From Eubacteriales bacterium (GTDB lineage Bacteria; Bacillota; Clostridia; Oscillospirales; CAG-272): a stretch of DNA of 64,000 nucleotides. The position numbers and the translations under genes are program-made. Shown piece by piece: positions 51,201 through 64,000 of the stretch (positions are counted from its first letter, which is position 1; each line of letters begins with the position of its first letter). The notes below the pieces were generated by a model. That model was not told the origin of the DNA, made no database searches, and saw only the letters and a program-made list of their open reading frames with translations. The stretch spans positions 95,434 through 159,433 of the forward strand of contig JAZNDW010000012.1 of assembly GCA_045588245.1 (NCBI GenBank), given 5' to 3'.

Positions 51201-51361
51201 CCGCCGAAGCCCATTTCACGTAAGCAGTCTATCTGACGCAAGAGTTCATCACGGTCAAGCTCGCAGTTCCAGCTCCAGAAAGGAGTACCTCTGTATTCGG
51301 ATGTCGGCGAGCGGAAAAGCTCGTCGGAGAGGAAATGTTCTTTGTTCTTTTTGTAAAGCAT
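48257..51361 (-). CDS. large intracellular glycoside hydrolase (possibly GH106-like alpha-L-rhamnosidase; family not verified)
   Basis: The N-terminus 'RGTPFWSWNCELDRDELLRQIDCLREMGFGGFHMHSRTG' is typical of a TIM-barrel GH group. The ATG at 51361 lies 7 nt after ggag, and the longer ORF adds a non-native leader. No signal peptide is visible. Confidence 0.7.
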   Translation of the reverse strand: MLYKKNKEHFLSDELFRSPTSEYRGTPFWSWNCELDRDELLRQIDCLREMGFGGFHMHSRTGMATPYLSDEFLGLIDACVEKAKENDMLAWLYDEDRWPSGSAGGLITRNAPELRQRYMTASTELPDGILDKDTAIKNGTSYLLGAFDIVRNAIGEMTSYVKVSPDAPISDGAVRWYFVCRCVTASAWFNNSYYIDTLNPNAASEFIKLTYEAYKEHVGADFGEAVPAIFTDEPQFVSKRPLPFSVGIDGNSQATFPWTPKFPEVFSKRYGYDITDKLPEIIFELRDGAVSEARYHFHDNISEMFTKGFNDLCGDWCDKNGIYFTGHLMEEPTLESQTHAVGDAMRCYRKMQLPGIDMLCDRVELTTAKQTQSAVHQYGREGMTSELYGVTNWDFDFRGHKFQGDWQAALGVTVRVPHLSWVSMQGDAKRDYPASINYQSPWYREYGYVEDHFARVNTAITRGKPVVKVAVVHPIESYWLHFGPNDLTANAKAQLEENFSNITSWLLSGLIDFDYICESTLPEQYKESEHGITVGEMTYDAVIVPACETLRRTTVDILGSFADRGGKLIFVGDAPKYINAVPHDDAKTLYEKGKHISFSRTAVLNSLSDVRNISIKNANGTDTDNLIYALRRDNECDWLFLAHLKKNNCLNVSHPQHISIRIKGEFTPVLYDTLSGNIERIPYTYNNGCTVIQRTLFAYDSLLLRLDRDATECTVKSDNNNHKRKFIDSIDYRDPVDFELSEPNVLLLDVARFAADDLPYSDYEEEILRADNKARRSVGMGNRIHRPAQPWTIEKKACEHKIRLLYTVLSEIEYDRALLATETPDAAEIKWNGISVDNSSVGYFTDRSIKTLPIPKINVGKNTLEFTLPLGDRTATEWCYILGNFGVKIEGTKKTIIAAPDKLGFGSVTTAGLPFYSGNIDYKLRFTSPGANAVIRIGNYRGAAVKVSFDGGESRIVAYEPYTLDLGEVSEGEHELTVTLLGTRHNSFGALHDTDYGNDWYGPDKWRTNGDAWCYEYKLHEMGMLTSPVIYFYE

Positions 51362-51602
51362 AATAATCTCCATTCCGCCGCCGATGGCGGCAAAAATAAA
51401 TATCGAAATCCTCGTAACCGTGCTTATTGCAAGGATTATTAGCGTGAAACAACGAACTATCATTATAGTGCGATTATACTTTCACACTAATTTCTCCTAT
51501 TGTAAGAGTGCTCTATTTCTATTATATCAGTCAAAGAATTATAGTCAACCGTTATTTATTTTGTTATGAACAATTATTTCTGAAAATTCTTTTATTCAAG
51601 TA

Positions 51603-51631
51603 TTGACATTCGAAAAATATTGTGATATTAT
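51603..51631 (+). promoter_or_regulatory. consensus sigma-A promoter with extended -10 for the tRNA cluster
   Basis: TTGACA (51603-51608), 17-nt spacer ending in TGa, TATTAT (51626-51631), about 27 nt upstream of the first tRNA. Confidence 0.7.
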
Positions 51632-51658: not shown

Positions 51659-51730
51659 GCGGGTGTAGTACAATGGTCAGTACGCCAGCCTTCCAAGCTG
51701 GATACGTGGGTTCGATTCCCATCACCCGCT
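51659..51730 (+). tRNA. tRNA-Gly (anticodon UCC)
   Basis: The cloverleaf folds by eye: acceptor GCGGGTG/CACCCGC, anticodon stem CCAGC/GCTGG, loop CTTCCAA, T-loop TTCGATT. No 3' CCA is encoded. Confidence 0.9.
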
Positions 51731-51741
51731 TTTTACAAAAT

Positions 51742-51815
51742 GTACCTGTAGCTCAGCAGGATAGAGCAACTGCCTTCTAAGCAGTAGGTCGCGGGTTCGA
51801 GTCCCTCCAGGTACG
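51742..51815 (+). tRNA. tRNA-Arg (anticodon UCU)
   Basis: Acceptor GTACCTG/CAGGTAC, anticodon stem ACTGC/GCAGT, loop CTTCTAA, T-loop TTCGAGT. The T stem has one C-U mismatch. No CCA is encoded. Confidence 0.85.
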
Positions 51816-51827
51816 TCATATCTATTC

Positions 51828-51902
51828 GGTGGGTGTAGCTCAGTTGGTTAGAGCGTCAGGTTGTGGCCCTGAAGGCCGTGGGTTCGAATCCCATCATTCA
51901 CC
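51828..51902 (+). tRNA. tRNA-His (anticodon GUG)
   Basis: 8-bp acceptor stem including G-1:C73 (GGTGGGTG/CATTCACC), anticodon loop TTGTGGC, T-loop TTCGAAT. No CCA is encoded. Confidence 0.9.
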
Positions 51903-51910
51903 CTAAAACA

Positions 51911-51945
51911 AAAAGGAGAGCGAAGCTCTCCTTTTTGTTTTTTCT
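51911..51945. terminator. bidirectional intrinsic terminator
   Basis: Stem aaaaggagagc (51911-51921) pairs with gctctcctttt (51925-51935), followed by a T-rich tail. Confidence 0.85.
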
Positions 51946-52710
51946 TTATTTTTTGTTTTGTCTGTATACCTCAAAGCCGAGGATTGCCGCAGACGATTGC
52001 GCCGAAAGCGACGCAGTAAAATCGCGTCCGTAATCGATTCTGATAATTTCATCAGCCATGTGCATCACGGTTTTTGAAATGCCGCGGTGTTCGCCTCCGA
52101 TCAAAAGAAAAACGGGGTGCTTTAAGTTTGCATCATACATGGACGTGGAATTTTCCTTAGCTGAGCATATAATCTTATAGCCGCGTTTCTTGAATATATC
52201 CACTGCTACTGGAGTATCGGAAACGAACATATCGGCGATCTCCGTCGTACCTGCGGATGACCGACATACAATCCCTGCTGATGCCATCCAATTACGCGGC
52301 GGCAGAACGATTCCGTCTACGCCTGCGGCGTAGAGTGATCGCACGGCAGTACCGAAATTGTAGGGATCCTCAATTCCGTCAAGCATAACGTAAAAACCGT
52401 TATCTTTAATTGCCTGCGCTGTGAGTTGAGGCAATATCCGCTCCTCACAAACAGCAACAAATCCGCCGTGAGTCGTTCCGAGCGTCAGCTCGGATATTTT
52501 GTCGGACGTGCTTTCTATCAGCGTAAAACCGTGTTTTTTTGCCATTCTCGAAAGCCACGCGATCTCTTTTTTATGTTTGTCAATACGAGATTCATCGTAG
52601 TATATCTCGGATATTTTTCGCGATGAAATACCTGCGTCACGAGATGCGATCACCGCGCGGATAGAAGTTAAGCCTTCGAATATATTTGAGGGAAGATATT
52701 TATCATTCAT
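51946..52710 (-). CDS. TrmH/SpoU family RNA 2'-O-methyltransferase
   Basis: 'DGIEDPYNFGTAVRS', 'LLIGGEHRGIS' and 'LSAQSSAAI' are SpoU motifs 1-3. Confidence 0.88.
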   Translation of the reverse strand: MNDKYLPSNIFEGLTSIRAVIASRDAGISSRKISEIYYDESRIDKHKKEIAWLSRMAKKHGFTLIESTSDKISELTLGTTHGGFVAVCEERILPQLTAQAIKDNGFYVMLDGIEDPYNFGTAVRSLYAAGVDGIVLPPRNWMASAGIVCRSSAGTTEIADMFVSDTPVAVDIFKKRGYKIICSAKENSTSMYDANLKHPVFLLIGGEHRGISKTVMHMADEIIRIDYGRDFTASLSAQSSAAILGFEVYRQNKK

Positions 52711-52885
52711 CAGTAAGTACCTATAAACATATTGTGATTTGAATTATAATATAAAAGCGTGACGGTGTCAACCTTGATGAATGTCAAAAAATAACCTGTG
52801 ATTTTTTTATGTATATTATTCACAAAAATTTTCATTAATGTAAAGAAGATTCTTTACGTTGAAACGCAAAAAACACATTATAATG

Positions 52886-52915
52886 TTGAAAAAAATCGGA
52901 ATATTATGATAAAAT
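52886..52915 (+). promoter_or_regulatory. candidate sigma-A promoter (extended -10) for the dehydrogenase-fumC-hdr operon
   Basis: TTGAAA (52886-52891), 18-nt spacer ending in TGa, TAAAAT (52910-52915). Confidence 0.4.
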
Positions 52916-52985: not shown

Positions 52986-53927
52986 ATGAATAAAATTACA
53001 ATTATCGGAACAGGCAGCGTCGGTTCAACGATCGCTTATACTTTGGCTATCAACGGTACCGCATCTGAAATAGTCATGATCGATATAAACGATGAAAAAG
53101 CACTTGGAGAGTCTTTGGATATCCGTCAGGGAACTCCTTTCAGCAATCCGTGTACCGTTTATGCAGGAAAATACGAGGATACAAAAGGCTCCAACATAGT
53201 CATCATTTGTTCCGGTGTTGCGCGAAAAGCAAACCAGTCACGGCTTGACCTTGCTCAGACAAATATTGATATTCTCAAATCCGTAGCAGGTCAGATCACA
53301 AAATACGCACCCGACGCAATTTATGTCATCGTAAGCAACCCCGTTGATATTCTTACATACGCGTTTCATAAATATGCGGATATTCCCGAAGCACATATCA
53401 TTGGTTCGGGCACTATCCTTGATACGTCGCGCCTTCGCTCGAGAGTTTCCGAATATTACAAAATCAATCAGAAAAACGTACACGCATACGTTCTCGGTGA
53501 GCATGGCGATTCCTCATTTATTCCGTGGTCTTTAGCTAATATTTCAAACGTGCCGATAGACAAATATCCCGAATCAGTTAAAAACGAAGTCAAGTATCCG
53601 CCTTTTTTCAAAAATGATGTGGAAGAATACGTTCGTAAGTCGGGCGCACGCGTGATTCAGAGTAAGGGAGCGACTTTTTACGCAGTATCAATGTCAGTTG
53701 CATACATTTGCAAATCTCTTCTCAGCGGTATCGATACTACTATGACCGTATCAACTATGCTTCACGGTGAATACGGCATCGATGACGTCTGCCTGAGCTT
53801 ACTCAATATTGTCGGCAAAAGCGGAGCGCACAGCAAGATACTATTACCGCTTAACGAGGACGAGATAGCATCACTCCGTCACAGCGCAGACAACCTTAAG
53901 GCTGTTATCAAAGCTGTTAAGATATAA
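52986..53927 (+). CDS. L-lactate/malate dehydrogenase family protein (LDH-type fold with Arg at the Gln102-equivalent position; probably malate dehydrogenase)
   Basis: 'ITIIGTGSVGST' Rossmann motif and 'GEHGDS' LDH-type motif. The substrate loop reads 'SGVARKANQSRLDL', where classical LDHs have 'AGANQKPGETRLDL'. Confidence 0.85.
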   Translation: MNKITIIGTGSVGSTIAYTLAINGTASEIVMIDINDEKALGESLDIRQGTPFSNPCTVYAGKYEDTKGSNIVIICSGVARKANQSRLDLAQTNIDILKSVAGQITKYAPDAIYVIVSNPVDILTYAFHKYADIPEAHIIGSGTILDTSRLRSRVSEYYKINQKNVHAYVLGEHGDSSFIPWSLANISNVPIDKYPESVKNEVKYPPFFKNDVEEYVRKSGARVIQSKGATFYAVSMSVAYICKSLLSGIDTTMTVSTMLHGEYGIDDVCLSLLNIVGKSGAHSKILLPLNEDEIASLRHSADNLKAVIKAVKI

Positions 53928-53962
53928 GATTTTTCGAATATCAAATCAGAAAGGATAAAACT

Positions 53963-55339
53963 ATGCAATACCGTATCGAACACGACTCTATGGGTGAAAT
54001 AAAGGTCCCCGCTGACCGCCTTTGGGCTGCACAAACACAAAGAAGCCTTCAAAATTTTAAGATCGGTGCCGGCATAGAAACGATGCCCGCTGAGATCATA
54101 CACGCTTTTGGAATACTCAAAAAAGCGTCAGCTGTCACAAATAATATACTTCGCCCGAAAAAAATGACTGATGAAAAGCTCGAAGCTATAAAAGCCGCCT
54201 GCGATGAAGTAATCTCGGGCAAGCTCAACGATCATTTCCCGCTCGTTGTGTGGCAGACGGGTTCGGGAACACAGTCCAACATGAATGCAAACGAGGTTAT
54301 TGCTAACAGAGCTAATCAGATACTAGGTGAAAAGCTCTTGCATCCAAACGACGACGTAAATATGAGCCAGTCATCAAATGATACTTTCCCGACTGCGATG
54401 CATATTGCTGCGGTACTCAGCATTGAGGATAAGCTTCTACCTGCAGTAAATGAGCTGATCGATACGTTTATTCGTCTTGAAGCCGAAAACGAGGGAATCG
54501 TCAAGAGCGGCCGTACTCATCTTCAGGATGCAACTCCTATCAAGTTCAGCCAGGAAATCAGCGGCTGGCGCTCTAGTCTCGAGCGTGATGTTGAGCTGCT
54601 TCGCATTGCGCTTTCACCTCTTTACGAGCTTGCTCTCGGCGGCACCGCAGTCGGCACGGGGCTCAACGCTCCTCTTGGCTTTTCCGAAACAGTAGCTACC
54701 GAAGTCGGCAACATCACGGGTAAGCCTTTCCGCACAGCCGAAAACAAGTTCCACGCCCTCACATCAAAAGACGAGCTTGTCTTCGCGCACGGTGCTATTA
54801 AAGCGCTTGCATGCGACATGATGAAGATCGCCAACGATATTCGTTGGCTTGCATCGGGTCCGCGCGACGGTCTTGGTGAGATATTCATTCCCGAAAATGA
54901 GCCGGGCTCATCTATTATGCCGGGTAAGGTCAATCCCACGCAGTGCGAGGCTGTAACGATGGTCGCAGTTCAGGTAATGGGAAACGATGTTGCGATCGGT
55001 ATCGCCGCGTCGCAGGGAAATTTTGAGCTGAACGTTTTTATGCCCGTTTGCATTTATAATTTCCTTCAGTCAGCACGTCTGCTTGCGGAAGCTATCAGTT
55101 CATTCAATAAAAACTGTGCCGTCGGCATCGTTGCTAACAAGGAAAAGATGCATCACAATCTTTATAATTCCTTGATGCTCGTTACGGCACTTAACCCCTA
55201 TATAGGTTATGAAAATGCCGCTAAAACTGCAAAAAAAGCATATAAAGACAATATATCCCTGAAACAAGCGTGCGTTGAACTCGGATTCCTCACTTCGGAA
55301 CGCTTCGACGAAGTGTTCCGTCCAGAGGAAATGGTCTGA
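53963..55339 (+). CDS. fumC: class II fumarate hydratase
   Basis: 458 aa. The signature 'GSSIMPGKVNPTQCEA' is the fumarase version, not the aspartase version. Confidence 0.93.
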   Translation: MQYRIEHDSMGEIKVPADRLWAAQTQRSLQNFKIGAGIETMPAEIIHAFGILKKASAVTNNILRPKKMTDEKLEAIKAACDEVISGKLNDHFPLVVWQTGSGTQSNMNANEVIANRANQILGEKLLHPNDDVNMSQSSNDTFPTAMHIAAVLSIEDKLLPAVNELIDTFIRLEAENEGIVKSGRTHLQDATPIKFSQEISGWRSSLERDVELLRIALSPLYELALGGTAVGTGLNAPLGFSETVATEVGNITGKPFRTAENKFHALTSKDELVFAHGAIKALACDMMKIANDIRWLASGPRDGLGEIFIPENEPGSSIMPGKVNPTQCEAVTMVAVQVMGNDVAIGIAASQGNFELNVFMPVCIYNFLQSARLLAEAISSFNKNCAVGIVANKEKMHHNLYNSLMLVTALNPYIGYENAAKTAKKAYKDNISLKQACVELGFLTSERFDEVFRPEEMV

Positions 55340-55368
55340 TCATATAAAGTGAAAGTACGGTGTTTTAT

Positions 55369-56163
55369 ATGAACTTAAGTTATTTTCCCGGCTGTACCCT
55401 CAAAAATAAAGCTAAAGAGCTTGACGAGTGTGCTCGCAAAGCGGCTAAGGCTTTTGGTGTGACTTTAGAGGAGATCGAAGATTGGCAGTGCTGCGGAGGT
55501 GTGTTCACATCGTCAAAAGATGAAGTCGCAACAAAGCTTTCCTCCATTCGTCTGCTCAAAGCCGCAAATGAAAAAAATCAGCCTTTAGTGACCGTTTGTT
55601 CTGCTTGCCATAATGTAGTCAAGCAGACCAATCACGCTATGTTGAGCGATAAAGAATTTGCCGATAAGGTGAAACGCTACATGGGCAAGGATGGTACGTA
55701 TAACGGCGGTACTGTCGTTTATCACTATCTTGAGATGCTTCGGGACGTCGTTGGTTATGATGTACTGAAAGAAAAGGTCGTAAATCCGCTGAAAGGCAAG
55801 AAGATTGCGGCATATTACGGATGCTTGCTCCTCCGTCCGAGCTCCGTTATGAAAATGGATGATCCTGAGAATCCGACGATCATGGAAGATTTGATCAGAA
55901 CATTGGGCGCAACTCCCGTCGTTTATGCCAACCGTAACGAATGCTGCGGCGGCTACGTAGTCATGGAAAGTCCCACGCTTGCAGAAAAAAAGAGTCATGA
56001 CGTTATCAATAATGCAAAGATGGCAGGCGCAGATATGATAATCACCGCTTGTCCGCTTTGCCGCTATAACCTTATGAAATCAAATTGTGATATTCCCGTG
56101 GTTTATTTCACAGAGCTCCTTGCCGAAGCTCTCGGTGTAAAGGGGGACGGTCAAGATGTATAA
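55369..56163 (+). CDS. hdrB: heterodisulfide reductase subunit B-like protein (two CCG domains)
   Basis: 'YFPGCT' N-terminus and two C...CCGG...CXXC motifs ('QCCGG...CSAC' and 'ECCGG...CPLC'). The GTG at 55360 is an alternative start. Confidence 0.88.
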   Translation: MNLSYFPGCTLKNKAKELDECARKAAKAFGVTLEEIEDWQCCGGVFTSSKDEVATKLSSIRLLKAANEKNQPLVTVCSACHNVVKQTNHAMLSDKEFADKVKRYMGKDGTYNGGTVVYHYLEMLRDVVGYDVLKEKVVNPLKGKKIAAYYGCLLLRPSSVMKMDDPENPTIMEDLIRTLGATPVVYANRNECCGGYVVMESPTLAEKKSHDVINNAKMAGADMIITACPLCRYNLMKSNCDIPVVYFTELLAEALGVKGDGQDV

Positions 56164-56542
56164 GACCGATCTTAGGGAAGAATTGATCCGTATCAGCGGT
56201 ACCGATCCGAAAAAATGTATGCGTTGCGGCAAATGTACCGCAACCTGTCCTGCTTACGATGAGATGGAGTTTCATCCGCATCAGTTTGTCAGCATGATAA
56301 AAGACGGTGATATCGAACCCCTTTTGAAATCCGAGTCGCTATACCGGTGTCTGTCGTGTTTTGCATGCGTTGAAAGATGTCCGAGAGGGGTTGAGCCTGT
56401 TAAGCTTATTGAGGCTGTACGCATTACTGTCATACATCAAAAGGGACAAAACAGAATGAAACCCGACGACGTTCCGTCGAAACTTGACGACGATATTCCT
56501 CAGCAGGCACTCGTGAGTGCGTTCAGAAAATATACAAAATAA
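56156..56542 (+). CDS. hdrC: heterodisulfide reductase subunit C-like 4Fe-4S dicluster protein
   Basis: 'CMRCGKCTATCP' and 'CLSCFACVERCP'. It overlaps hdrB by 8 nt. Confidence 0.88.
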   Translation: MYKTDLREELIRISGTDPKKCMRCGKCTATCPAYDEMEFHPHQFVSMIKDGDIEPLLKSESLYRCLSCFACVERCPRGVEPVKLIEAVRITVIHQKGQNRMKPDDVPSKLDDDIPQQALVSAFRKYTK

Positions 56543-56557
56543 GAAGGGAAAGACAAG

Positions 56558-58552
56558 ATGCAAAGAATTGGTGTATTTGTATGTTGGTGCGGAAGCAATA
56601 TCGCAGGCACCGTAGACGTACACAGAGTGGCAAAAGCTCTCGAAAAAGAACCCGGTGTTGTCTTTTCCACCGAATATCAATATATGTGTTCGGCGGCAGG
56701 TCAGAATATGATAAAGGATGCTGTGGCGCAGCATAAGCTCACAGGTATCGTTATCTGCTCATGCTCGCCACGCATGCACGAAGCAACTTTTCGCAAAACA
56801 GCCGTCTCGGCAGGTCTTAACCCTTTTATGGTAGAGATAGCAAACATCCGTGAGCAGTGCTCCTGGGTACATAAAGATATAGTATCGGGCACCGAGAAAG
56901 CTATCATTCTTGCAAAAGCCGCTGTAGCAAAGGTCAACCTTAACGCACCTTTAACGTCAGATACGTCTCCTGTAACGAAACGTGCGCTTATTATCGGCGG
57001 CGGTATTGCGGGAATACAAACGGCTCTTGACATTGCCGAAGCCGGATTTTCGGTAGATATCGTAGAAAAAAAGCCGACGATCGGCGGTAAAATGGCTCAG
57101 CTTGATAAAACGTTTCCGACGCTTGACTGCGCCGCGTGCATCCTCACACCAAAAATGGTTGACGCAGCACAGAACGAGAATATTCGCATTTTCTCATATA
57201 GCGAAGTGACGGACGTAAAAGGATTCGTTGGTAACTTTGACGTTACGATCAGAAAAAAAGCACGTTACGTCAAGGAAGATATTTGTACGGGCTGCGGCGC
57301 TTGCGTTGAAAAGTGCCCTATGAAAAAGGTCCCCAATGAATTTAATCTCGGAATGGATAACCGCACCGCGATCTATATTCCGTTTGCTCAGGCTGTTCCG
57401 AAGGTAGCGACCATCGATCCTGATGCTTGCAATATGATAAAAAACGGCAAGTGCGGTGTTTGCGCAAAGGTCTGCACCGTAGGTGCCATCGACTATAAGC
57501 AGAAGAATAAAATTATAACGGAAAAGTACGGTGCTATCGTTGTTGCTACGGGATTCGATCCCATCAGTATGGATAAATTCGACGAATTTGCGTACAGTCT
57601 GTCAAAGGACGTTATTACGTCCCTCGAATTCGAACGTCTCACAAATGCTGCAGGACCGACGGCAGGTAAGCTTATCCGTCCTTCAGACGGGAAACATCCG
57701 AAAAAGATCGTGTTCGTTCAGTGCGTAGGATCGCGTTGCGATTCTTGCTCGGAAAAGGGCAAGGAATATTGCTCGAAGGTTTGCTGTATGTACACAGCAA
57801 AACACGCAATGCTGACAAAAGATAAATATCCCGATACCGAAGTATACGTTTTCTATATTGACGTTCGTACCCCCGGCAAGAATTTTGATGAGTTTTACCG
57901 CCGTGCAGTTGAAGAATACGGCGTTCATTACATAAAGGGAATGGTTGGAAAGGTCGTGCCCGAGGGTGATAAACTCCTGGTACAGGGCTCTGACCTGCTT
58001 TCGGGAAAACAGCTCCGCATTGATGCAGATCTCGTCGTACTTGCGGCGGCTATTGAGCCCGATAAATCAGCTCGTTCTTTGGCAACGATGCTTACGGCGA
58101 GCATGGATACGAACGACTTTTTCGCGGAAGCGCATCCTAAGCTTCGTCCGGTAGAAAGCCCAACGGCAGGCATTTTCCTCTCGGGAGCTTGCCAAGGACC
58201 GAAGGATATTCCCGAAACCGTTTCACAGGCAGGTGCCGCGGCATCTAAAGTTATCGGTCTACTTATGAAAAATAAGCTTACGGGTAATCCGTGCATTGCT
58301 CATTCAGATGAGCTTATGTGTAACGGTTGCTCCTCTTGCGAAAAGGTATGTCCTTACGGCGCCATCACTTATATAGATAAAGAATTCCGTATGCCCGACA
58401 GAACTACGACCGTTCGCCGTGTTGCCGCAGTCAATTCTGCGGTGTGTCAGGGGTGTGGATGCTGTACGGTAGCTTGCCCGTCGGGCGCTATGGATCTGCG
58501 CGGCTTTACGTGCAAACAAATCATGGCTGAGGTTGACGCATTATGCAAATGA
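56558..58552 (+). CDS. hdrA: heterodisulfide reductase subunit A-like FAD/FeS protein
   Basis: 664 aa. N-terminal Cys-rich 'FVCWCGSNI' domain, FAD motif 'IIGGGIAGIQTALD', and four ferredoxin-type motifs (CTGCGACVEKCP, CGVCAKVC, CNGCSSCEKVCP, CQGCGCCTVACP). Confidence 0.92.
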   Translation: MQRIGVFVCWCGSNIAGTVDVHRVAKALEKEPGVVFSTEYQYMCSAAGQNMIKDAVAQHKLTGIVICSCSPRMHEATFRKTAVSAGLNPFMVEIANIREQCSWVHKDIVSGTEKAIILAKAAVAKVNLNAPLTSDTSPVTKRALIIGGGIAGIQTALDIAEAGFSVDIVEKKPTIGGKMAQLDKTFPTLDCAACILTPKMVDAAQNENIRIFSYSEVTDVKGFVGNFDVTIRKKARYVKEDICTGCGACVEKCPMKKVPNEFNLGMDNRTAIYIPFAQAVPKVATIDPDACNMIKNGKCGVCAKVCTVGAIDYKQKNKIITEKYGAIVVATGFDPISMDKFDEFAYSLSKDVITSLEFERLTNAAGPTAGKLIRPSDGKHPKKIVFVQCVGSRCDSCSEKGKEYCSKVCCMYTAKHAMLTKDKYPDTEVYVFYIDVRTPGKNFDEFYRRAVEEYGVHYIKGMVGKVVPEGDKLLVQGSDLLSGKQLRIDADLVVLAAAIEPDKSARSLATMLTASMDTNDFFAEAHPKLRPVESPTAGIFLSGACQGPKDIPETVSQAGAAASKVIGLLMKNKLTGNPCIAHSDELMCNGCSSCEKVCPYGAITYIDKEFRMPDRTTTVRRVAAVNSAVCQGCGCCTVACPSGAMDLRGFTCKQIMAEVDALCK

Positions 58553-58977
58553 ATGAATACAAACCTTTGATCGTTGCGTTCTGCTGTAACTGGTGTTCTT
58601 ATGCCGGTGCAGATCTTGCAGGAAACAACCGCCTTAACTATCCTGCCGAAGTCAAGATCGTCCGCGTGCCTTGCTCATGCCGCGTTGACCCTACGTTTGT
58701 TCTTCGTGCGTTTCAGCGAGGCGCTGACGGTGTTATAATCTGCGGCTGTCACCCGGGAGACTGCCATTACACGTCGGGAAACTATTTCACAAGACGACGT
58801 ATGGCAATGCTGTTTTCGATGCTTGATTATCTCGGCATCGAAAGAGACAGGACCCGCGTTGAATGGGTGTCTGCTGCCGAAGGAGCAAAATTTGCCGCTA
58901 CGATGAACGATTTTGCAGAGAAGGTAGCATCACTCGGTAAAAACAAGAGATTGGAGGACCTGAGATGCAAAAAGTAA
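58543..58977 (+). CDS. mvhD: MvhD-like (methyl-viologen-reducing hydrogenase delta subunit / FlxD-like) iron-sulfur protein
   Basis: 'FCCNWCSYAGADLAG' and 'VIICGCHPGDCHY' are MvhD signatures. It overlaps hdrA by 10 nt. Confidence 0.88.
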   Translation: MQMNEYKPLIVAFCCNWCSYAGADLAGNNRLNYPAEVKIVRVPCSCRVDPTFVLRAFQRGADGVIICGCHPGDCHYTSGNYFTRRRMAMLFSMLDYLGIERDRTRVEWVSAAEGAKFAATMNDFAEKVASLGKNKRLEDLRCKK

Positions 58978-59963
58978 CGGCTCAAGAACTTATTGATATC
59001 GCTGTCGCTAAGCTAAAGGACGGTACGGTTTCATCTGTTCTCGGTTGGCAGAAGGGAGAATTCGATTACGACATTACTCCCGCAGTTTTTACAGATGAAA
59101 AATCCTTGCGCGAAGGCTTCGTCTGGAATGATTTTTGCGGTGCAAATTTTTCAAAATATCTTGTTTCAAAGACACGAAAATATGACGGTAGAATCCTTGT
59201 GTTCCTCAAGCCTTGCGATACGTACAGCTTCAATCAGCTTTTGACTGAGCACAGATTCGATCGTCAAAAGGTCTATGCTGTCGGTATCCCATGCTCTGGA
59301 ATGGCGGATATCAGCAGAATCAAAGCGATCACGGGCGACGGTATTTCGTCCGTTGACTGTACGGGTGAAAAGATCGCCGTCAGAACGCTCTACGATGACG
59401 AACCCATACTCGTTACCCCTGCAGATGTCCTTGCGGAGCGTTGCATCAACTGCAAAAGCAAAAAGCACGTCGCATACGATCTACTTATCGGAAAAGAGGG
59501 GGATACAATCAATTCGACACGATTCGACGAGGTACAAAAGCTTGAAGCAATGACTCCCGACGAGCGTTTTCTGTTCTGGCAGAACGAGCTTTCACATTGC
59601 ATACGCTGTAATGCTTGCCGCGATGCTTGCCCTGCGTGCACCTGCGAAGTTTGCGTATTTAATAATCCCGCTTCTGGTGTTGAAAATAAGGCTGCCTCAA
59701 ACAGCTTTGAAGAAAAACTCTTCCACATCATCCGTGCTTATCACGTTGCGGGACGGTGCACGGACTGCGGTGAGTGTTCCCGCGTGTGTCCGCAGAATAT
59801 TCCTCTGCATTTACTAAACCGTAAGTTTATCAAAGATATGAACGAGTTCTACGGTGAGTATCAGGCAGGAGCGGAGATCGGAACGAAGTCTCCTTTACTC
59901 AATTATTCAGTCAATGATCCTGAGCCGAGTGAAGTCTTAGATAGGAGGCATGCCGATGCGTAA
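58965..59963 (+). CDS. 4Fe-4S cluster protein, FlxC-like
   Basis: 332 aa with Cys motifs 'CIRCNACRDACPACTCEVC' and 'CTDCGECSRVCP'. It overlaps mvhD by 13 nt behind a ggagg RBS. Confidence 0.75.
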   Translation: MQKVTAQELIDIAVAKLKDGTVSSVLGWQKGEFDYDITPAVFTDEKSLREGFVWNDFCGANFSKYLVSKTRKYDGRILVFLKPCDTYSFNQLLTEHRFDRQKVYAVGIPCSGMADISRIKAITGDGISSVDCTGEKIAVRTLYDDEPILVTPADVLAERCINCKSKKHVAYDLLIGKEGDTINSTRFDEVQKLEAMTPDERFLFWQNELSHCIRCNACRDACPACTCEVCVFNNPASGVENKAASNSFEEKLFHIIRAYHVAGRCTDCGECSRVCPQNIPLHLLNRKFIKDMNEFYGEYQAGAEIGTKSPLLNYSVNDPEPSEVLDRRHADA

Positions 59964-60975
59964 GTGTAATTTATATAAAATGCAGTCTGTTTTTGCACAG
60001 ATCTCATCCACGATGCCGCTGTATCTTCCCGTTGACGGATCTGACGGTCGTGCCGTATATACCGAATGGAAAGACGGGAAAGAGTGGAGCAAATCTCACA
60101 ACACGGTAAAAAGCCCGAAGGATTTCTTTTTTCCGCAGACGGAAGATCTTATGAGGTTTAAGACGGCAGGAAAAAGTATTGAAATCGTCGACGTAAGAAA
60201 AGAGACCGAAGATTTTGTGATATTCGGCGTTCGCGCTTGCGACGTAAAAAGCTTTGAAATTCTTGACAGTGTTTTTCTCACCGATCCTGTGGACAGCTAT
60301 TACGCATCACGCCGTGCACACGGCATCATCGTGTCGGTAGCTTGTGTAAGACCGTCCGAAACTTGCTTTTGTCAGACTTTCGGAATCGACGCGGCATCAC
60401 CCTTAGGTGATATATCCTGTTGGAAAACTGAGGATGAACTTTATTGGCAGGCGATTACCGAAAAGGGAAAAGCACTTCTTATGTCTATTGAGTCATTAAC
60501 GGAAGAGTGTACAGACGAAGCCGTTATGGCACAGAAAGAGAAGATTGAGTCTGTAATGAAGAAGCTTCCTTTAGCCGGACTTTCTGCCGACGCTTTTGGC
60601 GGCGGAAAAACACAGGAATTCTTCAACCGTAATGAATGGGATGAACTGTCCGAAACCTGCATTGGATGTGGCACCTGTACTTTCGTTTGCCCGACGTGTC
60701 AGTGCTATGACATCAAGGATTTCAATACGGGACGTGGTGTTATCCGATACCGTTGCTGGGATTCGTGTATGTATTCGGAATTTACAAAGATGTCACACGG
60801 TAACAACCGTCTTACACAGAAAGAACGCTTCCGTCAGCGCTTTATGCATAAGCTTGTTTATCACCCTGAGAACAATAACGGTGTTTTTGGATGCGTTGGC
60901 TGCGGACGCTGTCTTTCCTCCTGTCCTATTTCAATGAATATTGTTAAAGTTATGAAAAAGCTCGGAGGTGACTAA
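59956..60975 (+). CDS. 4Fe-4S dicluster protein, FlxB/AsrA/HydB-like
   Basis: 'CIGCGTCTFVCPTCQCYD' and 'CVGCGRCLSSCP'. The ATG at 59956 lies 7 nt after aggagg, and the ATG at 59950 is too close to the RBS. Confidence 0.78.
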   Translation: MRKCNLYKMQSVFAQISSTMPLYLPVDGSDGRAVYTEWKDGKEWSKSHNTVKSPKDFFFPQTEDLMRFKTAGKSIEIVDVRKETEDFVIFGVRACDVKSFEILDSVFLTDPVDSYYASRRAHGIIVSVACVRPSETCFCQTFGIDAASPLGDISCWKTEDELYWQAITEKGKALLMSIESLTEECTDEAVMAQKEKIESVMKKLPLAGLSADAFGGGKTQEFFNRNEWDELSETCIGCGTCTFVCPTCQCYDIKDFNTGRGVIRYRCWDSCMYSEFTKMSHGNNRLTQKERFRQRFMHKLVYHPENNNGVFGCVGCGRCLSSCPISMNIVKVMKKLGGD

Positions 60976-60976
60976 T

Positions 60977-61810
60977 ATGAACGTTCGTGAAGAAACATTG
61001 ATACCGAAGATCGGCGTCATTACAGACGTTCGTATCGATACCCCCGATATAAAGACGTTCCGAGTCGTTACCGTAGACGGAAAGAAGGCGTTTGATCACC
61101 GCCCCGGGCAGTGTGCAATGATTTCCGTTCCCGGTGTCGGCGAAGCGATGTTCTCCATAACTTCTTCGCCAACGAATGAAGAATACATGGAGTTTTCGAT
61201 TAAAAAATGCGGTTGTGTTACAGACTGGCTCCATTCCGCAGAGGTAGGACAGCAGATCACAATTCGCGGTCCGTACGGCAATCCTTTTCCGGTTGACGAC
61301 GAGTTTTCGGGGAAAAATTTGCTGTTTATCGCCGGCGGCGTCGGTCTTGCGCCACTGCGTTCCGTTATCAATTATTGCCGAGATTACCGTGACCGTTACG
61401 GTAAACTTGACATAGTTTACGGTGCAAGATCAAAAGAGGATCTTCTTAATTATAAAGAGATCATCGAAAAATGGACGAACGACACCGATGTAAACGTCTA
61501 TCTTACGATCGACCGTGAACAGAAAGAATGGGGCGGACATGTCGGTTTTGTACCTGATTATGTAAAAGAGCTCGAATTCGACACGGATAAGATTGCGGTC
61601 CTTTGCGGTCCGCCCGTTATGATCAGGTTTACTCTGGACGCTCTGCGTTCTCTCGGATTTGAAAAAACACAGGTCTATACGACGCTTGAGCTTCGTATGA
61701 AGTGTGGGGCTGGAAAATGCGGTCGTTGCAACGTAGGAGCAAAATACGTCTGCAAAGACGGTCCTGTGTTCCGCTTTGATGAGCTTGATCAGCTTCCAGA
61801 TGAATATTAA
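60977..61810 (+). CDS. FAD/NAD(P)-binding oxidoreductase with C-terminal [2Fe-2S] motif, FlxA/AsrB/HydG-like
   Basis: 'RPGQCAMIS' is FAD-binding, 'LLFIAGGVGLAPLRS' is NAD(P)-binding, and 'CGAGKCGRCNVGAKYVCKDGPVF' is the cluster motif. The ATG lies 1 nt after the upstream stop, behind ggagg. Confidence 0.82.
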   Translation: MNVREETLIPKIGVITDVRIDTPDIKTFRVVTVDGKKAFDHRPGQCAMISVPGVGEAMFSITSSPTNEEYMEFSIKKCGCVTDWLHSAEVGQQITIRGPYGNPFPVDDEFSGKNLLFIAGGVGLAPLRSVINYCRDYRDRYGKLDIVYGARSKEDLLNYKEIIEKWTNDTDVNVYLTIDREQKEWGGHVGFVPDYVKELEFDTDKIAVLCGPPVMIRFTLDALRSLGFEKTQVYTTLELRMKCGAGKCGRCNVGAKYVCKDGPVFRFDELDQLPDEY

Positions 61811-61822
61811 GGAGTGAGAACG

Positions 61823-62497
61823 ATGGAACAGATGGTTAACATTTTCCTTTTCGGAAAGAAATATGAAGTGCCGAAAAATCTTACGATAATGACCGCTATG
61901 GAATATGCAGGATATCAGCTCGTACGCGGTTGCGGTTGTCGTAACGGTTTTTGCGGTGCGTGTGCTACCATTTACCGAATCAAGGGCGATAAAGAACTGA
62001 AAGCTTGTCTTGCTTGTCAGACAACGGTTGAGGATAATATGTATATCGCAACGTTGCCTTTCTTTCCCCTCGTAAAGCAGGTTTATGATATAAACAAGGT
62101 CAGCACGAATGAATCTGTTATGATGCAGCTCTATCCTGAGATATACGCTTGTATCGGTTGTAACGCTTGTACAAAGGCGTGCACGCAGGATCTTAACGTT
62201 ATGCAGTACATCGCATACGCTCAACGCGGAGATTTCAAGAGGTGTGCTGAGGAATCATTTGACTGCGTAATGTGCGGAGTCTGTTCTTCGCGCTGTCCTG
62301 CAGGAATCTCTCATCCGCAGGTCGCTATGCTTGCCCGCAGAATAAACGGCAAATATCTTGCGCCGGGATCCGGACATTTGAAAAATCGAGTAAGAGAGAT
62401 CAATAACGGTGACTTTAACGAGCTAATTGAAGCTTTGATGCAAAAACCGTTAGAAGAGCTCAAAGAGCTTTACAACACCCGTGAGATCGAAAAGTAA
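61823..62497 (+). CDS. succinate dehydrogenase/fumarate reductase iron-sulfur subunit-like protein
   Basis: N-terminal [2Fe-2S]-type 'CGCRNGFCGAC', then 'CIGCNACTKAC' and 'CVMCGVCSSRCP'. The ATG at 61823 lies 9 nt after aaggag. Confidence 0.78.
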   Translation: MEQMVNIFLFGKKYEVPKNLTIMTAMEYAGYQLVRGCGCRNGFCGACATIYRIKGDKELKACLACQTTVEDNMYIATLPFFPLVKQVYDINKVSTNESVMMQLYPEIYACIGCNACTKACTQDLNVMQYIAYAQRGDFKRCAEESFDCVMCGVCSSRCPAGISHPQVAMLARRINGKYLAPGSGHLKNRVREINNGDFNELIEALMQKPLEELKELYNTREIEK

Positions 62498-62510
62498 GGA
62501 GGAGAGGGAA

Positions 62511-64000
62511 GTGTATTCTGAAAAATATCAGCAATCGCTGTCAGCGGTTGCTGCTTTAAGAAAACAAAATATTGCCTATGAGCCCGAACGAATGACGGCT
62601 ACAGAGAAGGAAAAGCTCCTTACCGAATATCACCCCGATTATAAGGCAAACGAATTTTCCACTCTTATTATCGGTCCCAACAAAGGAGATAAGGTCCCGC
62701 GAGAGCTTTGCGAAATGTTACAGGCACACAGTCGCATTGCAAAAACAGATATTGATCTTACCGCACCCGACCATGAAGCTGACGTACTCGTCATCGGAGC
62801 CGGCGGTGCGGGTGCTGCCTCAGCCATAGAAGCTCATAATGCCGGAGCAGACGTTTTGATCGTAACGAAGCTCCGTATGGGGGATGCAAACACGATGATG
62901 GCTGAAGGTGGGATTCAGGCGGCTGATAAGCCTAACGATTCTCCCGCGATCCATTTTGTGGACGCTTTCGGCGGAGGTCATTTTGCGGCAAAAAGAGAGC
63001 TTCTTGCTAAGCTTGTAAACGATGCCCCAGAGGCTATAGAGTGGCTATCCGAGCTCGGTGTCGAATTTGATAAAGAAGCCGACGGAACGATGATCACAAC
63101 ACATGGCGGAGGCACGTCAAGAAAGCGTATGCACGCTGCGAAGGATTACACGGGTGCTGAGATCATGAGAACGCTTCGCGATGAGGTTCTGAACCGAGAG
63201 ATACCCGTTCTAGATTTCACATCAGCGATCGAACTGATTCTTGACGAGGACGGAAAAGCAGCAGGTGCGGTTCTCTTAAACATGGAAACTAATGAGATTT
63301 TAGTTGCCAAGGCAAAGACCGTTATTATCGCAACGGGTGGCGCAGGACGAATGCATTATCAAGGTTTTCCGACTTCTAATCATTACGGTGCAACGGCAGA
63401 CGGTCTTGTACTCGGTTACCGTGCGGGCGCAAAGCTATTATATGCGGAAACGCTTCAGTATCATCCTACGGGAGCCGCTCATCCCGAACAGATCTTCGGC
63501 GCGCTTGTAACAGAAAAGGTCCGTTCACTCGGAGCAAAACTCGTTAATAAGAACGGTGAAGTATTCATGCATCCGCTTGAAACGAGAGACGTAACGGCAG
63601 CTTCCATTATTCGTGAGTGCAGTGACCGTAATAACGGAATCGAAACGGATAACGGCTTCGCCGTTTGGCTTGACACGCCCATGATTGAAAGAATAAGCGG
63701 AGAGGGAACGATTGAAAAACGAATTCCCGCGATGATGCGTATGTTTGAAAAGTATGGCATTGATATCCGAAAAGAGCCTATACTCGTTTATCCAACACTT
63801 CATTATCAGAACGGCGGTCTTGATATTAACGTAGACGGTATGGCAACGAACGTTAAAAATCTCTTTGTAGCAGGCGAAGCTGTCGGAGGTATTCACGGTA
63901 AGAACCGTCTTATGGGAAACTCTCTTCTTGATATTATCGTGTTCGGGCGCAACGCAGGCATTAATGCGGCAAAAGCCGCAAAGGATACGACGGTAGGCAA
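62511..64000 (+). CDS. fumarate reductase/succinate dehydrogenase flavoprotein-like FAD protein (3' end outside the window)
   Basis: I translated this by hand, as it is not on the ORF track. It starts at a GTG behind ggaggag and stays open to the window end. Motifs: 'VLVIGAGGAGAASA', 'YHPTG', 'TEKVRSLGAKLVN', 'LHYQNGG' and 'GEAVGGIHGKNRLMGNSL'. Confidence 0.85.
   Translation, partial: MYSEKYQQSLSAVAALRKQNIAYEPERMTATEKEKLLTEYHPDYKANEFSTLIIGPNKGDKVPRELCEMLQAHSRIAKTDIDLTAPDHEADVLVIGAGGAGAASAIEAHNAGADVLIVTKLRMGDANTMMAEGGIQAADKPNDSPAIHFVDAFGGGHFAAKRELLAKLVNDAPEAIEWLSELGVEFDKEADGTMITTHGGGTSRKRMHAAKDYTGAEIMRTLRDEVLNREIPVLDFTSAIELILDEDGKAAGAVLLNMETNEILVAKAKTVIIATGGAGRMHYQGFPTSNHYGATADGLVLGYRAGAKLLYAETLQYHPTGAAHPEQIFGALVTEKVRSLGAKLVNKNGEVFMHPLETRDVTAASIIRECSDRNNGIETDNGFAVWLDTPMIERISGEGTIEKRIPAMMRMFEKYGIDIRKEPILVYPTLHYQNGGLDINVDGMATNVKNLFVAGEAVGGIHGKNRLMGNSLLDIIVFGRNAGINAAKAAKDTTVG

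Follow-up and report, generated by a model that had tools for sequence, protein, structure and literature searches.

To our knowledge, Clostridia possess neither quinones nor cytochromes, and for this reason the reduction of fumarate by these bacteria, together with any energy gained from it, is still unsettled. The locus described here lies in a 64,000-nucleotide stretch of DNA (the window) from an Eubacteriales bacterium of the order Oscillospirales (assembly GCA_045588245.1, contig JAZNDW010000012.1, positions 95,434 to 159,433). It is a single, tightly packed operon on the + strand, running from position 52986 to the window edge, in which genes for relatives of heterodisulfide reductase (HdrB, HdrC and HdrA) and for Flx proteins (FlxD, which is of the MvhD type, FlxC, FlxB and FlxA) are joined to genes for a soluble fumarate reductase-like pair, an iron-sulphur (FeS) protein and a flavoprotein, and are preceded by genes for a malate dehydrogenase-like enzyme and the fumarate hydratase FumC. 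We read this operon, with a probability of about 0.6, as encoding a bifurcating NADH:fumarate/ferredoxin reductase on the branch from oxaloacetate to succinate in quinone-free gut Oscillospirales.

A very similar gene set has been described in Pseudoclostridium thermosuccinogenes, whose 'succinate operon' (CDQ83_RS03365-RS03315) comprises genes for a fumarate hydratase, seven Flx-Hdr proteins, two fumarate reductase subunits and a putative succinate transporter (Koendjbiharie et al. 2020, PMC7282089). These genes shift together in RNA-seq, being about 4-fold up at low CO2, and high H2 abolishes succinate formation in this species; ferredoxin-coupled fumarate reduction was assumed there 'as proposed previously', with reference to a 2019 preprint, doi 10.20944/preprints201912.0288.v1 (PMC7282089). 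Compared by description, the two operons share gene content and order, proposed function and membership of the Clostridia, but no malate dehydrogenase gene (mdh) is described in front of the P. thermosuccinogenes operon (PMC7282089), and the lineage of the window is uncultured, apparently mesophilic and from the gut. Tubeworm symbionts and Thioflavicoccus mobilis carry tfrAB genes interspersed with flxABCD-hdrABC and korABCD, for which a joint complex was proposed (Rubin-Blum et al. 2019, PMC6315080), and a 2026 survey treats the same linkage as a possible NADH-dependent complex reducing fumarate and ferredoxin together (PMC13147460). Like the window, these clusters have a two-subunit Tfr-like reductase amid Flx-Hdr genes and have drawn the same bifurcation hypothesis (PMC6315080). 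They belong, however, to autotrophic Gammaproteobacteria, where they serve the reductive tricarboxylic acid cycle, and are linked to a 2-oxoglutarate:ferredoxin oxidoreductase, whereas the window operon is associated with fumC, mdh, a transporter and, as we propose, fermentative succinate formation. In Ruminococcus champanellensis, the STRING partners of HdrA include succinate dehydrogenase/fumarate reductase, according to a 2024 preprint. The gene cluster and the concept are thus already published for other bacteria and the cluster will not surprise a specialist, so that the novelty implied when the locus was originally predicted from its sequence was overstated; the accompanying statement that no enzyme with this subunit set has been characterised agrees with the literature searched, in which none was found. 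What is added here is how widely the system occurs among gut Oscillospirales, the recognition of mdh and a transporter as parts of the unit, the atypical features of its flavoprotein, and a modular association of the pair with different Hdr-linked donor modules in Bacteria and Archaea.

More distant counterparts share parts of the system. All seven Flx-Hdr protein types occur in the FlxABCD-HdrABC of Desulfovibrio vulgaris (Ramos et al. 2015, pmid 25367508), as that system is summarised in later papers (PMC7282089, PMC6315080); in those summaries its proposed acceptor is DsrC, while the window, with the gene order hdrBCA-flxDCBA, encodes a fumarate reductase in cis. The thiol:fumarate reductase TfrAB of Methanothermobacter (Heim et al. 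1998, pmid 9578488, as outlined in PMC6315080) resembles the pair of the window in being soluble and in having an FeS subunit with a [2Fe-2S] cluster and two four-cysteine motifs; according to the same outline, TfrB carries fused CCG domains, whereas the CCG protein of the window is encoded by a separate HdrB-like gene. The HdrA, HdrB, HdrC and MvhD of the methanogen HdrABC-MvhAGD complex (5odc, 8rvu) are clear homologues of window proteins, but the methanogen complex has a hydrogenase and the window operon has none, and the heterodisulfide CoM-S-S-CoB is an unlikely acceptor in a bacterium. Finally, the fumarate reductase FrdABCDE of Hydrogenobacter thermophilus (Miura et al. 2008, as cited in PMC13147460) is, like the complex proposed here, cytoplasmic, multi-subunit, NADH-linked and reductive, but it has other subunits of other sizes (PMC10052474) encoded by dispersed genes, and no description of HdrA or MvhD in it and no claim of bifurcation was found.

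Eleven consecutive, co-oriented open reading frames make up the window part of the operon. Measured from the likeliest starts and in gene order, the distances between them are 35, 29, -8, 15, -10, -13, -14, 1, 12 and 13 nucleotides, and most starts are preceded by a purine-rich, Shine-Dalgarno-like run. The gaps of at most 35 nucleotides, the four overlaps and the one near-abutting junction that had been read from the sequence are therefore all there, and the absence of terminators between the genes was borne out by a terminator scan, which gave no + strand site in any intergenic gap. Five weak + strand hairpins occur within the operon, all of them intragenic, and the 17 hairpins of the scanned region (both strands) are at chance level (13.8 +/- 3.9 in shuffled sequence). 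As to the predicted extent of eleven genes, the eleven frames stand, but the eleventh is cut by the window edge and in relatives a twelfth gene, for a transporter, follows.

Pfam, NCBIfam and PDB sequence searches were applied to the frames, and every component assignment that could be tested held. The seven Flx-Hdr proteins are encoded contiguously from 55369 to 61810. The HdrB/SdhE-like protein (264 amino acids, 55369..56163, + strand, ATG start with an alternative GTG at 55360) has two Pfam CCG domains, each with a complete C...CC...CxxC motif; its match to a solved HdrB (8rvv_B) reaches 132 bits, and the NCBIfam models for SdhE (155) and HdrB (152) match it equally, both under cutoff. The HdrC-like protein (128 amino acids, 56156..56542, + strand, Pfam Fer4_8/Fer4_17) is of the 2x[4Fe-4S] type with two CxxCxxCxxxCP motifs, and HdrC models are its best NCBIfam matches, again under cutoff. 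HdrA (664 amino acids, 56558..58552, + strand) is a flavin adenine dinucleotide (FAD)- and FeS-containing flavoprotein and the presumed site of bifurcation. Its residues 3-662 align with residues 5-649 of HdrA from M. thermolithotrophicus (5odc_A, 686 bits), so that it is full length and includes both ferredoxin domains of the bifurcating methanogen enzyme; it has three canonical CxxCxxCxxxCP motifs and further cysteine clusters, and with 82-88% identity it is the best-conserved Hdr subunit among relatives. None of the three reaches the equivalog cutoff for CoB-CoM heterodisulfide reductase (HdrA2, 778 vs 1100; HdrB TIGR03288, 152 vs 345; HdrC TIGR03290, 60 vs 160), and by sequence they are homologues of the methanogen enzyme, not identical to it.

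The MvhD/FlxD protein (144 amino acids, 58543..58977, + strand), a [2Fe-2S] connector, matches Pfam FlpD over the whole profile (E 6.7e-55), which completes the HdrBCA-MvhD set as originally assigned. Two polyferredoxin-like proteins and an FAD/NAD(P) reductase had been recognised next to it, and their likenesses fit the Flx pattern. The FlxC-like FeS protein (332 amino acids, 58965..59963, + strand, Pfam Fer4_8, two CxxCxxCxxxCP motifs) resembles the FdhB beta subunit of Fdh-Hdr complexes, which docks on Hdr (8rvu_E, E 1e-21). The FlxB-like FeS protein (341 amino acids, 59950..60975, + strand, Pfam Fer4_22) is of the sulfhydrogenase-beta/AsrA type, with ShyB, HydB and AsrA as best NCBIfam matches and 170 bits against the beta subunit of P. 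furiosus sulfhydrogenase I (9nez_B). The FlxA-like protein (277 amino acids, 60977..61810, + strand, ATG start with an alternative GTG at 60968) combines Pfam FAD_binding_6, NAD_binding_1 and a C-terminal [2Fe-2S] domain (DHODB_Fe-S_bind), has hydrogenase gamma, AsrB and HydG as best NCBIfam models, and is the presumed entry point for NAD(P)H.

The pair that follows is less typical of its family. The flavoprotein gene, on the + strand, starts at the GTG at 62511, which is preceded by AAGGAGG, and is cut by the window edge (62511..64000), so that 496 of its 534 codons lie inside. The full length of 534 residues was read from the database protein P0001, which is 100% identical to the window protein; P0001 has been called 10 codons too long at the N-terminus, the surplus codons running back into the gene before it, and in relatives the start corresponds to the GTG at 62511. 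Another database protein, P0002 (605 amino acids), repeats a stretch of about 70 residues internally, which has the look of misassembly. The sequence belongs to Pfam FAD_binding_2 (E 3e-70, residues 91-472), and its NCBIfam ranking is TfrA first, followed by SdhA/FrdA and NadB: the best curated model is TfrA (NF004900), at 343 against a cutoff of 718 for the full-length relative P0008, and the SdhA/FrdA model TIGR01812 scores 286 against a cutoff of 567. The protein differs from TfrA in a conserved N-terminal extension of about 90 residues and in the lack of an SdhA-type C-terminal domain. Succ_DH_flav_C (PF02910) gave no match in the window fragment or in the precomputed domains of full-length homologues, and the domain must be missing because only about 60 residues follow the FAD domain.

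The fumarate-binding and catalytic residues compared are all those of a fumarate reductase. Residues H318, T334, E335, R338, R359, H431 and R466 align with H232, T244, E245, R248, R287, H355 and R390 of E. coli FrdA, so that the proton donor Arg287 of that enzyme is retained as R359. Asn127 aligns with His44, the residue of E. coli FrdA that binds FAD covalently, and the FAD of the window protein is accordingly predicted to be non-covalent. Non-covalent binding of FAD is a usual feature of fumarate-reducing enzymes, as opposed to succinate-oxidising ones. A medium-quality AlphaFold2 model (pLDDT 69.8, pTM 0.75) has E. coli FrdA and mycobacterial SdhA as its top Foldseek matches (E ~1e-23, TM ~0.6). 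The flavoprotein is thus closest to TfrA, SdhA and FrdA, as had been predicted. Two non-fumarate families were considered for the pair and rejected: no model for the adenylylsulfate reductase AprA was among the matches listed, which leaves AprAB aside, and NadB scores below TfrA, below SdhA and below its own cutoff, and has no FeS partner.

The FeS partner (224 amino acids, 61823..62497, + strand, ATG start with an alternative GTG at 61814; Pfam Fer2_4 and Fer4_8) has an N-terminal [2Fe-2S] domain and two four-cysteine [4Fe-4S] motifs, the conserved cysteines being C39, C44, C47 and C65 together with the motifs at 110-120 and 148-158. It had been called FrdB-like; the family scores are weak (dhsB, TIGR00384, 29 vs a cutoff of 88), likeness to the TfrB N-terminus is also weak (39.5 bits), and in a profile search of the PDB, FrdB and SdhB appear only amid generic 2x[4Fe-4S] ferredoxin matches. 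Neither Pfam nor NCBIfam finds a CCG domain in it, and none of the top 150 representatives has the TfrB-like length of about 490 amino acids. The AlphaFold2 model, built from a shallow alignment, is poor (pLDDT 60, pTM 0.43); Foldseek found nothing for it at E <= 1e-3, only the roughly 75-residue [2Fe-2S] beta-grasp of NuoG-type proteins, and this result is not used as evidence. The partner is, however, tied to the flavoprotein by constant adjacency, being directly upstream of it at every locus examined, and by a natural fusion: in the 727-residue protein P0293 of the representative library, residues 1-217 correspond to the FeS partner and 293-674 to the FAD_binding_2 domain. P0293 could be a true fusion or an artefact of gene calling or a frameshift.

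The first two genes would supply the substrate. Gene 1 (313 amino acids, 52986..53927, + strand, Pfam Ldh_1_N and Ldh_1_C) encodes an NAD-dependent dehydrogenase of the lactate dehydrogenase (LDH) family; the original prediction was of a malate dehydrogenase (MDH)-like enzyme. Its NCBIfam scores lean to LDH (L-LDH model TIGR01771, 318 vs a cutoff of 304; MDH model NF004863, 268 vs a cutoff of 283), and the substrate call rests on the specificity residue and on gene context. Position 102 is Gln in LDH and Arg in MDH, and the classic Gln102Arg switch specifies oxaloacetate. Since Arg80 of gene 1 (in 'GVARK') aligns with this position, the gene is read as a predicted malate dehydrogenase converting oxaloacetate to malate; its best PDB match, 1y6j, likewise has Arg at position 102. 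Gene 2 (458 amino acids, 53963..55339, + strand, Pfam Lyase_1 and FumaraseC_C) is the class II fumarate hydratase FumC, with 711.7 bits against the equivalog cutoff of 664.75 (TIGR00979). Aspartase was considered for gene 2 and rejected, since the aspA models stay under their own cutoffs.

The linkage of these genes is not confined to this genome. When a single genome from each species was scanned, relatives of the flavoprotein turned up in at least 595 species-level genomes, of which the best 80 were taken for comparison of loci. The flavoproteins of the best 80 are 80-88% identical to that of the window (tblastn), and all 80 are metagenome-assembled genomes (MAGs) of gut or rumen Clostridia, with labels that include Acutalibacteraceae, Ructibacterium, Congzhengia, Oscillospiraceae and 'Ruminococcus sp.'. 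Among those of the 80 loci that had enough flanking sequence, the nine genes from hdrB to frdA are colinear and on the same strand in 51/51, fumC is directly upstream in 47/51 and mdh is upstream of fumC in 43/51; at L038, L048, L049 and L051 fumC is not immediately upstream of hdrB, and at L051 mdh stands there alone. A transporter gene of the AspT/YidE/YbjL family lies within 500 nucleotides downstream in 60 of the 75 loci whose flank reached far enough. The downstream gene was read from P0008, a relative 89% identical, and because relatives carry it the operon most likely has twelve genes, the last just outside the window. The succinate exporter SucE of Corynebacterium, a member of the same family, offers a lead to its function and nothing firmer.

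Distant members of the family, found with a profile of divergent FeS-partner sequences, occur in Desulfofundulus, Desulfovirgula, Thermoanaerobacteraceae, Armatimonadetes, WOR-3 and Bipolaricaulaceae, and also in Methanomassiliicoccales, Thermoplasmata, Archaeoglobi and Korarchaeota. Six of their contexts were examined, and in all six the FeS partner is followed by a flavoprotein of 532-550 amino acids that is 53-57% identical to the window protein and shares its N-terminal extension, Asn127 and catalytic residues. What surrounds the pair varies. In Desulfofundulus (L084) it follows HdrC and a CCG protein, and in WOR-3 (L085) it follows the alpha and beta subunits of a class I fumarase, with no Hdr gene nearby. 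In Methanomassiliicoccales (L086, CP070739.1, 5102-12375) the pair is preceded by a ferredoxin, a 1009-residue HdrA-like protein, MvhD and an FrhB/FdhB-like protein; this cluster has neither HdrB nor HdrC and is without any CCG protein, and it may be an F420H2-linked version of the system. An Archaeoglobi MAG has a CCG protein, the pair, an HdrA::MvhD fusion and a large CCG protein, with a class I fumarase nearby. In a Bipolaricaulaceae MAG (L088, JBNGCS010000015.1, 3026-12354), HdrA, MvhD, both [NiFe]-hydrogenase subunits (small, then large), a maturation protease, HdrC and HdrB precede the pair, and after it come a ferredoxin, a 2-oxoacid:ferredoxin oxidoreductase, a class I fumarase and malic enzyme; this cluster may be an H2-driven version of the same system. 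A Bacillota MAG (L089) has malic enzyme, HdrC, HdrB, HdrA, a 1066-residue NAD/FAD/FeS protein, MvhD and an FlxC-like protein before the pair, and a ferredoxin, a 2-oxoacid:ferredoxin oxidoreductase and succinyl-CoA synthetase after it.

These comparisons bear on both halves of the proposed reaction. The pair shares its neighbourhood with fumarases of two unrelated classes and, downstream, with enzymes that consume succinate, and the predicted substrate is for that reason fumarate. Judged from gene neighbourhoods, the pair is a recurrent partner, in Bacteria and Archaea, of HdrA/MvhD modules that bear different donors, and because distant pairs adjoin such modules and fumarases, bifurcation is the best explanation of the window operon; some pairs have no HdrA nearby, from which it follows that bifurcation is not obligatory for the reductase. 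The original concern that the linkage might be unique to one genome has been answered by this neighbourhood survey, with 51/51 relatives showing it and modified forms in distant bacteria and archaea.

The comparisons above show which genes are present, how they are arranged, that the fumarate site is kept and that the linkage recurs; a physical complex, NADH as donor, ferredoxin reduction and direct FeS wiring are inferred. The mechanism that we propose runs as follows. Malate dehydrogenase would yield malate, which FumC would then convert to fumarate. NAD(P)H would be oxidised at FlxA, with electrons passing via FlxB, FlxC and FlxD (MvhD) to the FAD of HdrA, which would split each electron pair. 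The downhill electron would travel through HdrC, the CCG clusters of HdrB, the FeS partner and the FAD of the flavoprotein to fumarate, by direct wiring of FeS clusters within one physical complex, and the other would go uphill to ferredoxin (Fd). Summed up, the process would be 2 NADH + fumarate + Fd(ox) -> 2 NAD+ + succinate + Fd(red), and the AspT/YidE-family transporter, whose gene lies just downstream in relatives, would probably export the succinate. The standard potentials are -320 mV for NADH, about +30 mV (+33) for fumarate and about -420 mV for ferredoxin, and because of them the net reaction is exergonic; the original argument that electron flow from NADH to fumarate leaves enough energy to co-reduce ferredoxin is therefore sound.

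Several observations weigh against this proposal. No purification or assay of such a complex, from this or a homologous source, was found in the literature searched, and the H. thermophilus fumarate reductase is described as a plain NADH enzyme (PMC13147460). The electron donor could be NADPH instead of NADH. Neither subunit of the pair is placed in its family with ease: the flavoprotein passes no NCBIfam cutoff, and the FeS partner is placed in the SdhB/FrdB family neither by sequence nor by fold. The intact CCG motifs of HdrB are of the disulfide-reductase type and would fit a thiol intermediate equally well, and in L084 and L085 the pair occurs with no HdrA nearby.

Three other explanations have to be set against the bifurcating reductase. 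The Flx and Hdr proteins could be a mere electron wire to a soluble, non-bifurcating NAD(P)H:fumarate reductase, with ferredoxin not reduced at all. There is precedent in the soluble five-subunit NADH-dependent enzyme of H. thermophilus, as described in PMC13147460, and in a 2026 study that models the FrdAB of the gut acetogen Blautia luti, by assumption, as simply NADH-dependent (PMC12773636), and orthologous pairs do occur with HdrC and a CCG protein only (L084). HdrA, however, is kept in full length with both ferredoxin domains, at 82-88% identity among relatives; seven accessory redox genes would be a costly way to build a simple wire, a driving force of about 350 mV would be wasted, and the inhibition of P. 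thermosuccinogenes succinate formation by H2 fits ferredoxin coupling instead (PMC7282089). We regard this explanation as unlikely. A shade less probable is a thiol shuttle of the kind found in methanogens with Tfr and Hdr, in which the pair would oxidise one or more thiols to reduce fumarate and a soluble carrier would link the two activities. It draws on the rank of TfrA as best NCBIfam model for the flavoprotein, on an HdrB whose two complete CCG motifs are like those of true heterodisulfide reductases, and on papers that speak of Flx-Hdr electron flow 'to ferredoxin (and thiols)' and of 'thiol:fumarate reductase' homologues (PMC7282089, PMC6315080). The FeS partner, though, at 224 amino acids, is without the CCG domains at the C-terminus in which TfrB has its thiol-oxidising site, the operon has one CCG protein only, and no gene for a thiol carrier or for thiol biosynthesis is conserved in the cluster; moreover, the Methanomassiliicoccales cluster does without a CCG protein and the WOR-3 pair without any Hdr gene nearby.

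The last explanation, that the pair reduces another substrate (for example, some other enoate or an aspartate-derived compound) or oxidises succinate, with its linkage to fumC and mdh incidental, is very improbable. It is true that the flavoprotein reaches no curated family cutoff, that NadB models score it nearly as high as SdhA/FrdA models, and that the FAD_binding_2 superfamily holds many reductases of non-fumarate substrates. All dicarboxylate-binding and proton-donor residues are nonetheless kept across the family, two unrelated fumarase classes adjoin the pair in different phyla, and succinyl-CoA synthetase and 2-oxoacid:ferredoxin oxidoreductase follow it in L089; an FeS partner is atypical of NadB, and the loss of the covalent-FAD His to Asn speaks against the succinate-oxidising direction. 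The bifurcating NADH:fumarate/ferredoxin reductase thus stays the preferred reading of the operon. A broader reading is tentative, and we put it somewhat below even odds: the pair would be a widespread and ancient plug-in high-potential acceptor for HdrA-based bifurcation, FeS-wired and thiol-free, and in hundreds of Oscillospirales species from gut and rumen it would be the chief way of forming succinate with conservation of energy. Its donors would be lineage-specific, with Flx and NADH in Oscillospirales, a [NiFe] Mvh hydrogenase and H2 in Bipolaricaulaceae, an FrhB-like protein and F420H2 in Methanomassiliicoccales, and a large NAD(P)H flavoprotein in other Bacillota.

The surroundings of the operon set its 5' boundary. 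A promoter-like site with an extended -10 TG (TTGAAA-18-TAAAAT, 52886..52915, + strand) lies about 70 nucleotides 5' of the first gene; promoter-like sites overall are as frequent as expected from shuffled sequence, so that it is a candidate by consensus match alone. Further upstream are a SpoU-type RNA methylase gene, divergent from and unrelated to the operon (51946-52710, - strand), and three tRNA genes (Gly-TCC, Arg-TCT and His-GTG, in the region 51659-51941), which have a near-consensus promoter-like site ahead of them (51603-51631) and a terminator with a 17-bp stem and a T-run after them (51905-51941). The tRNA genes, the strong terminator, the divergent SpoU gene and the promoter-like site together indicate that the unit begins at 52986. 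Beyond the tRNA genes, a 1068-residue protein with a weak match to GH106, the alpha-L-rhamnosidase family (48257-51463, - strand), is likewise unrelated, as are the other upstream genes, which are of housekeeping or carbohydrate type (GH106-like, aminotransferase, ROK, EngA and others); the operon is accordingly taken as self-contained. An inverted repeat, TGTGA-N18-TCACA (52797-52824), situated between the SpoU gene and the operon, was considered as a regulator site and rejected, since 0/43 relatives have the repeat upstream of mdh; it is probably due to chance or strain-specific.

If the operon is bifurcating, succinate formation in many gut and rumen Oscillospirales would yield reduced ferredoxin, which could feed Rnf or hydrogenases; at least 595 species-level genomes encode the flavoprotein subfamily. 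Models of ATP yields, of H2 output and of succinate cross-feeding in the gut and rumen would then change, and fumarate would become one of the few high-potential acceptors proven for flavin-based electron bifurcation. The operon, being compact and conserved, is a good target for heterologous expression or native purification, and through it gut Clostridia, which are quinone-free, probably conserve energy as they form succinate.

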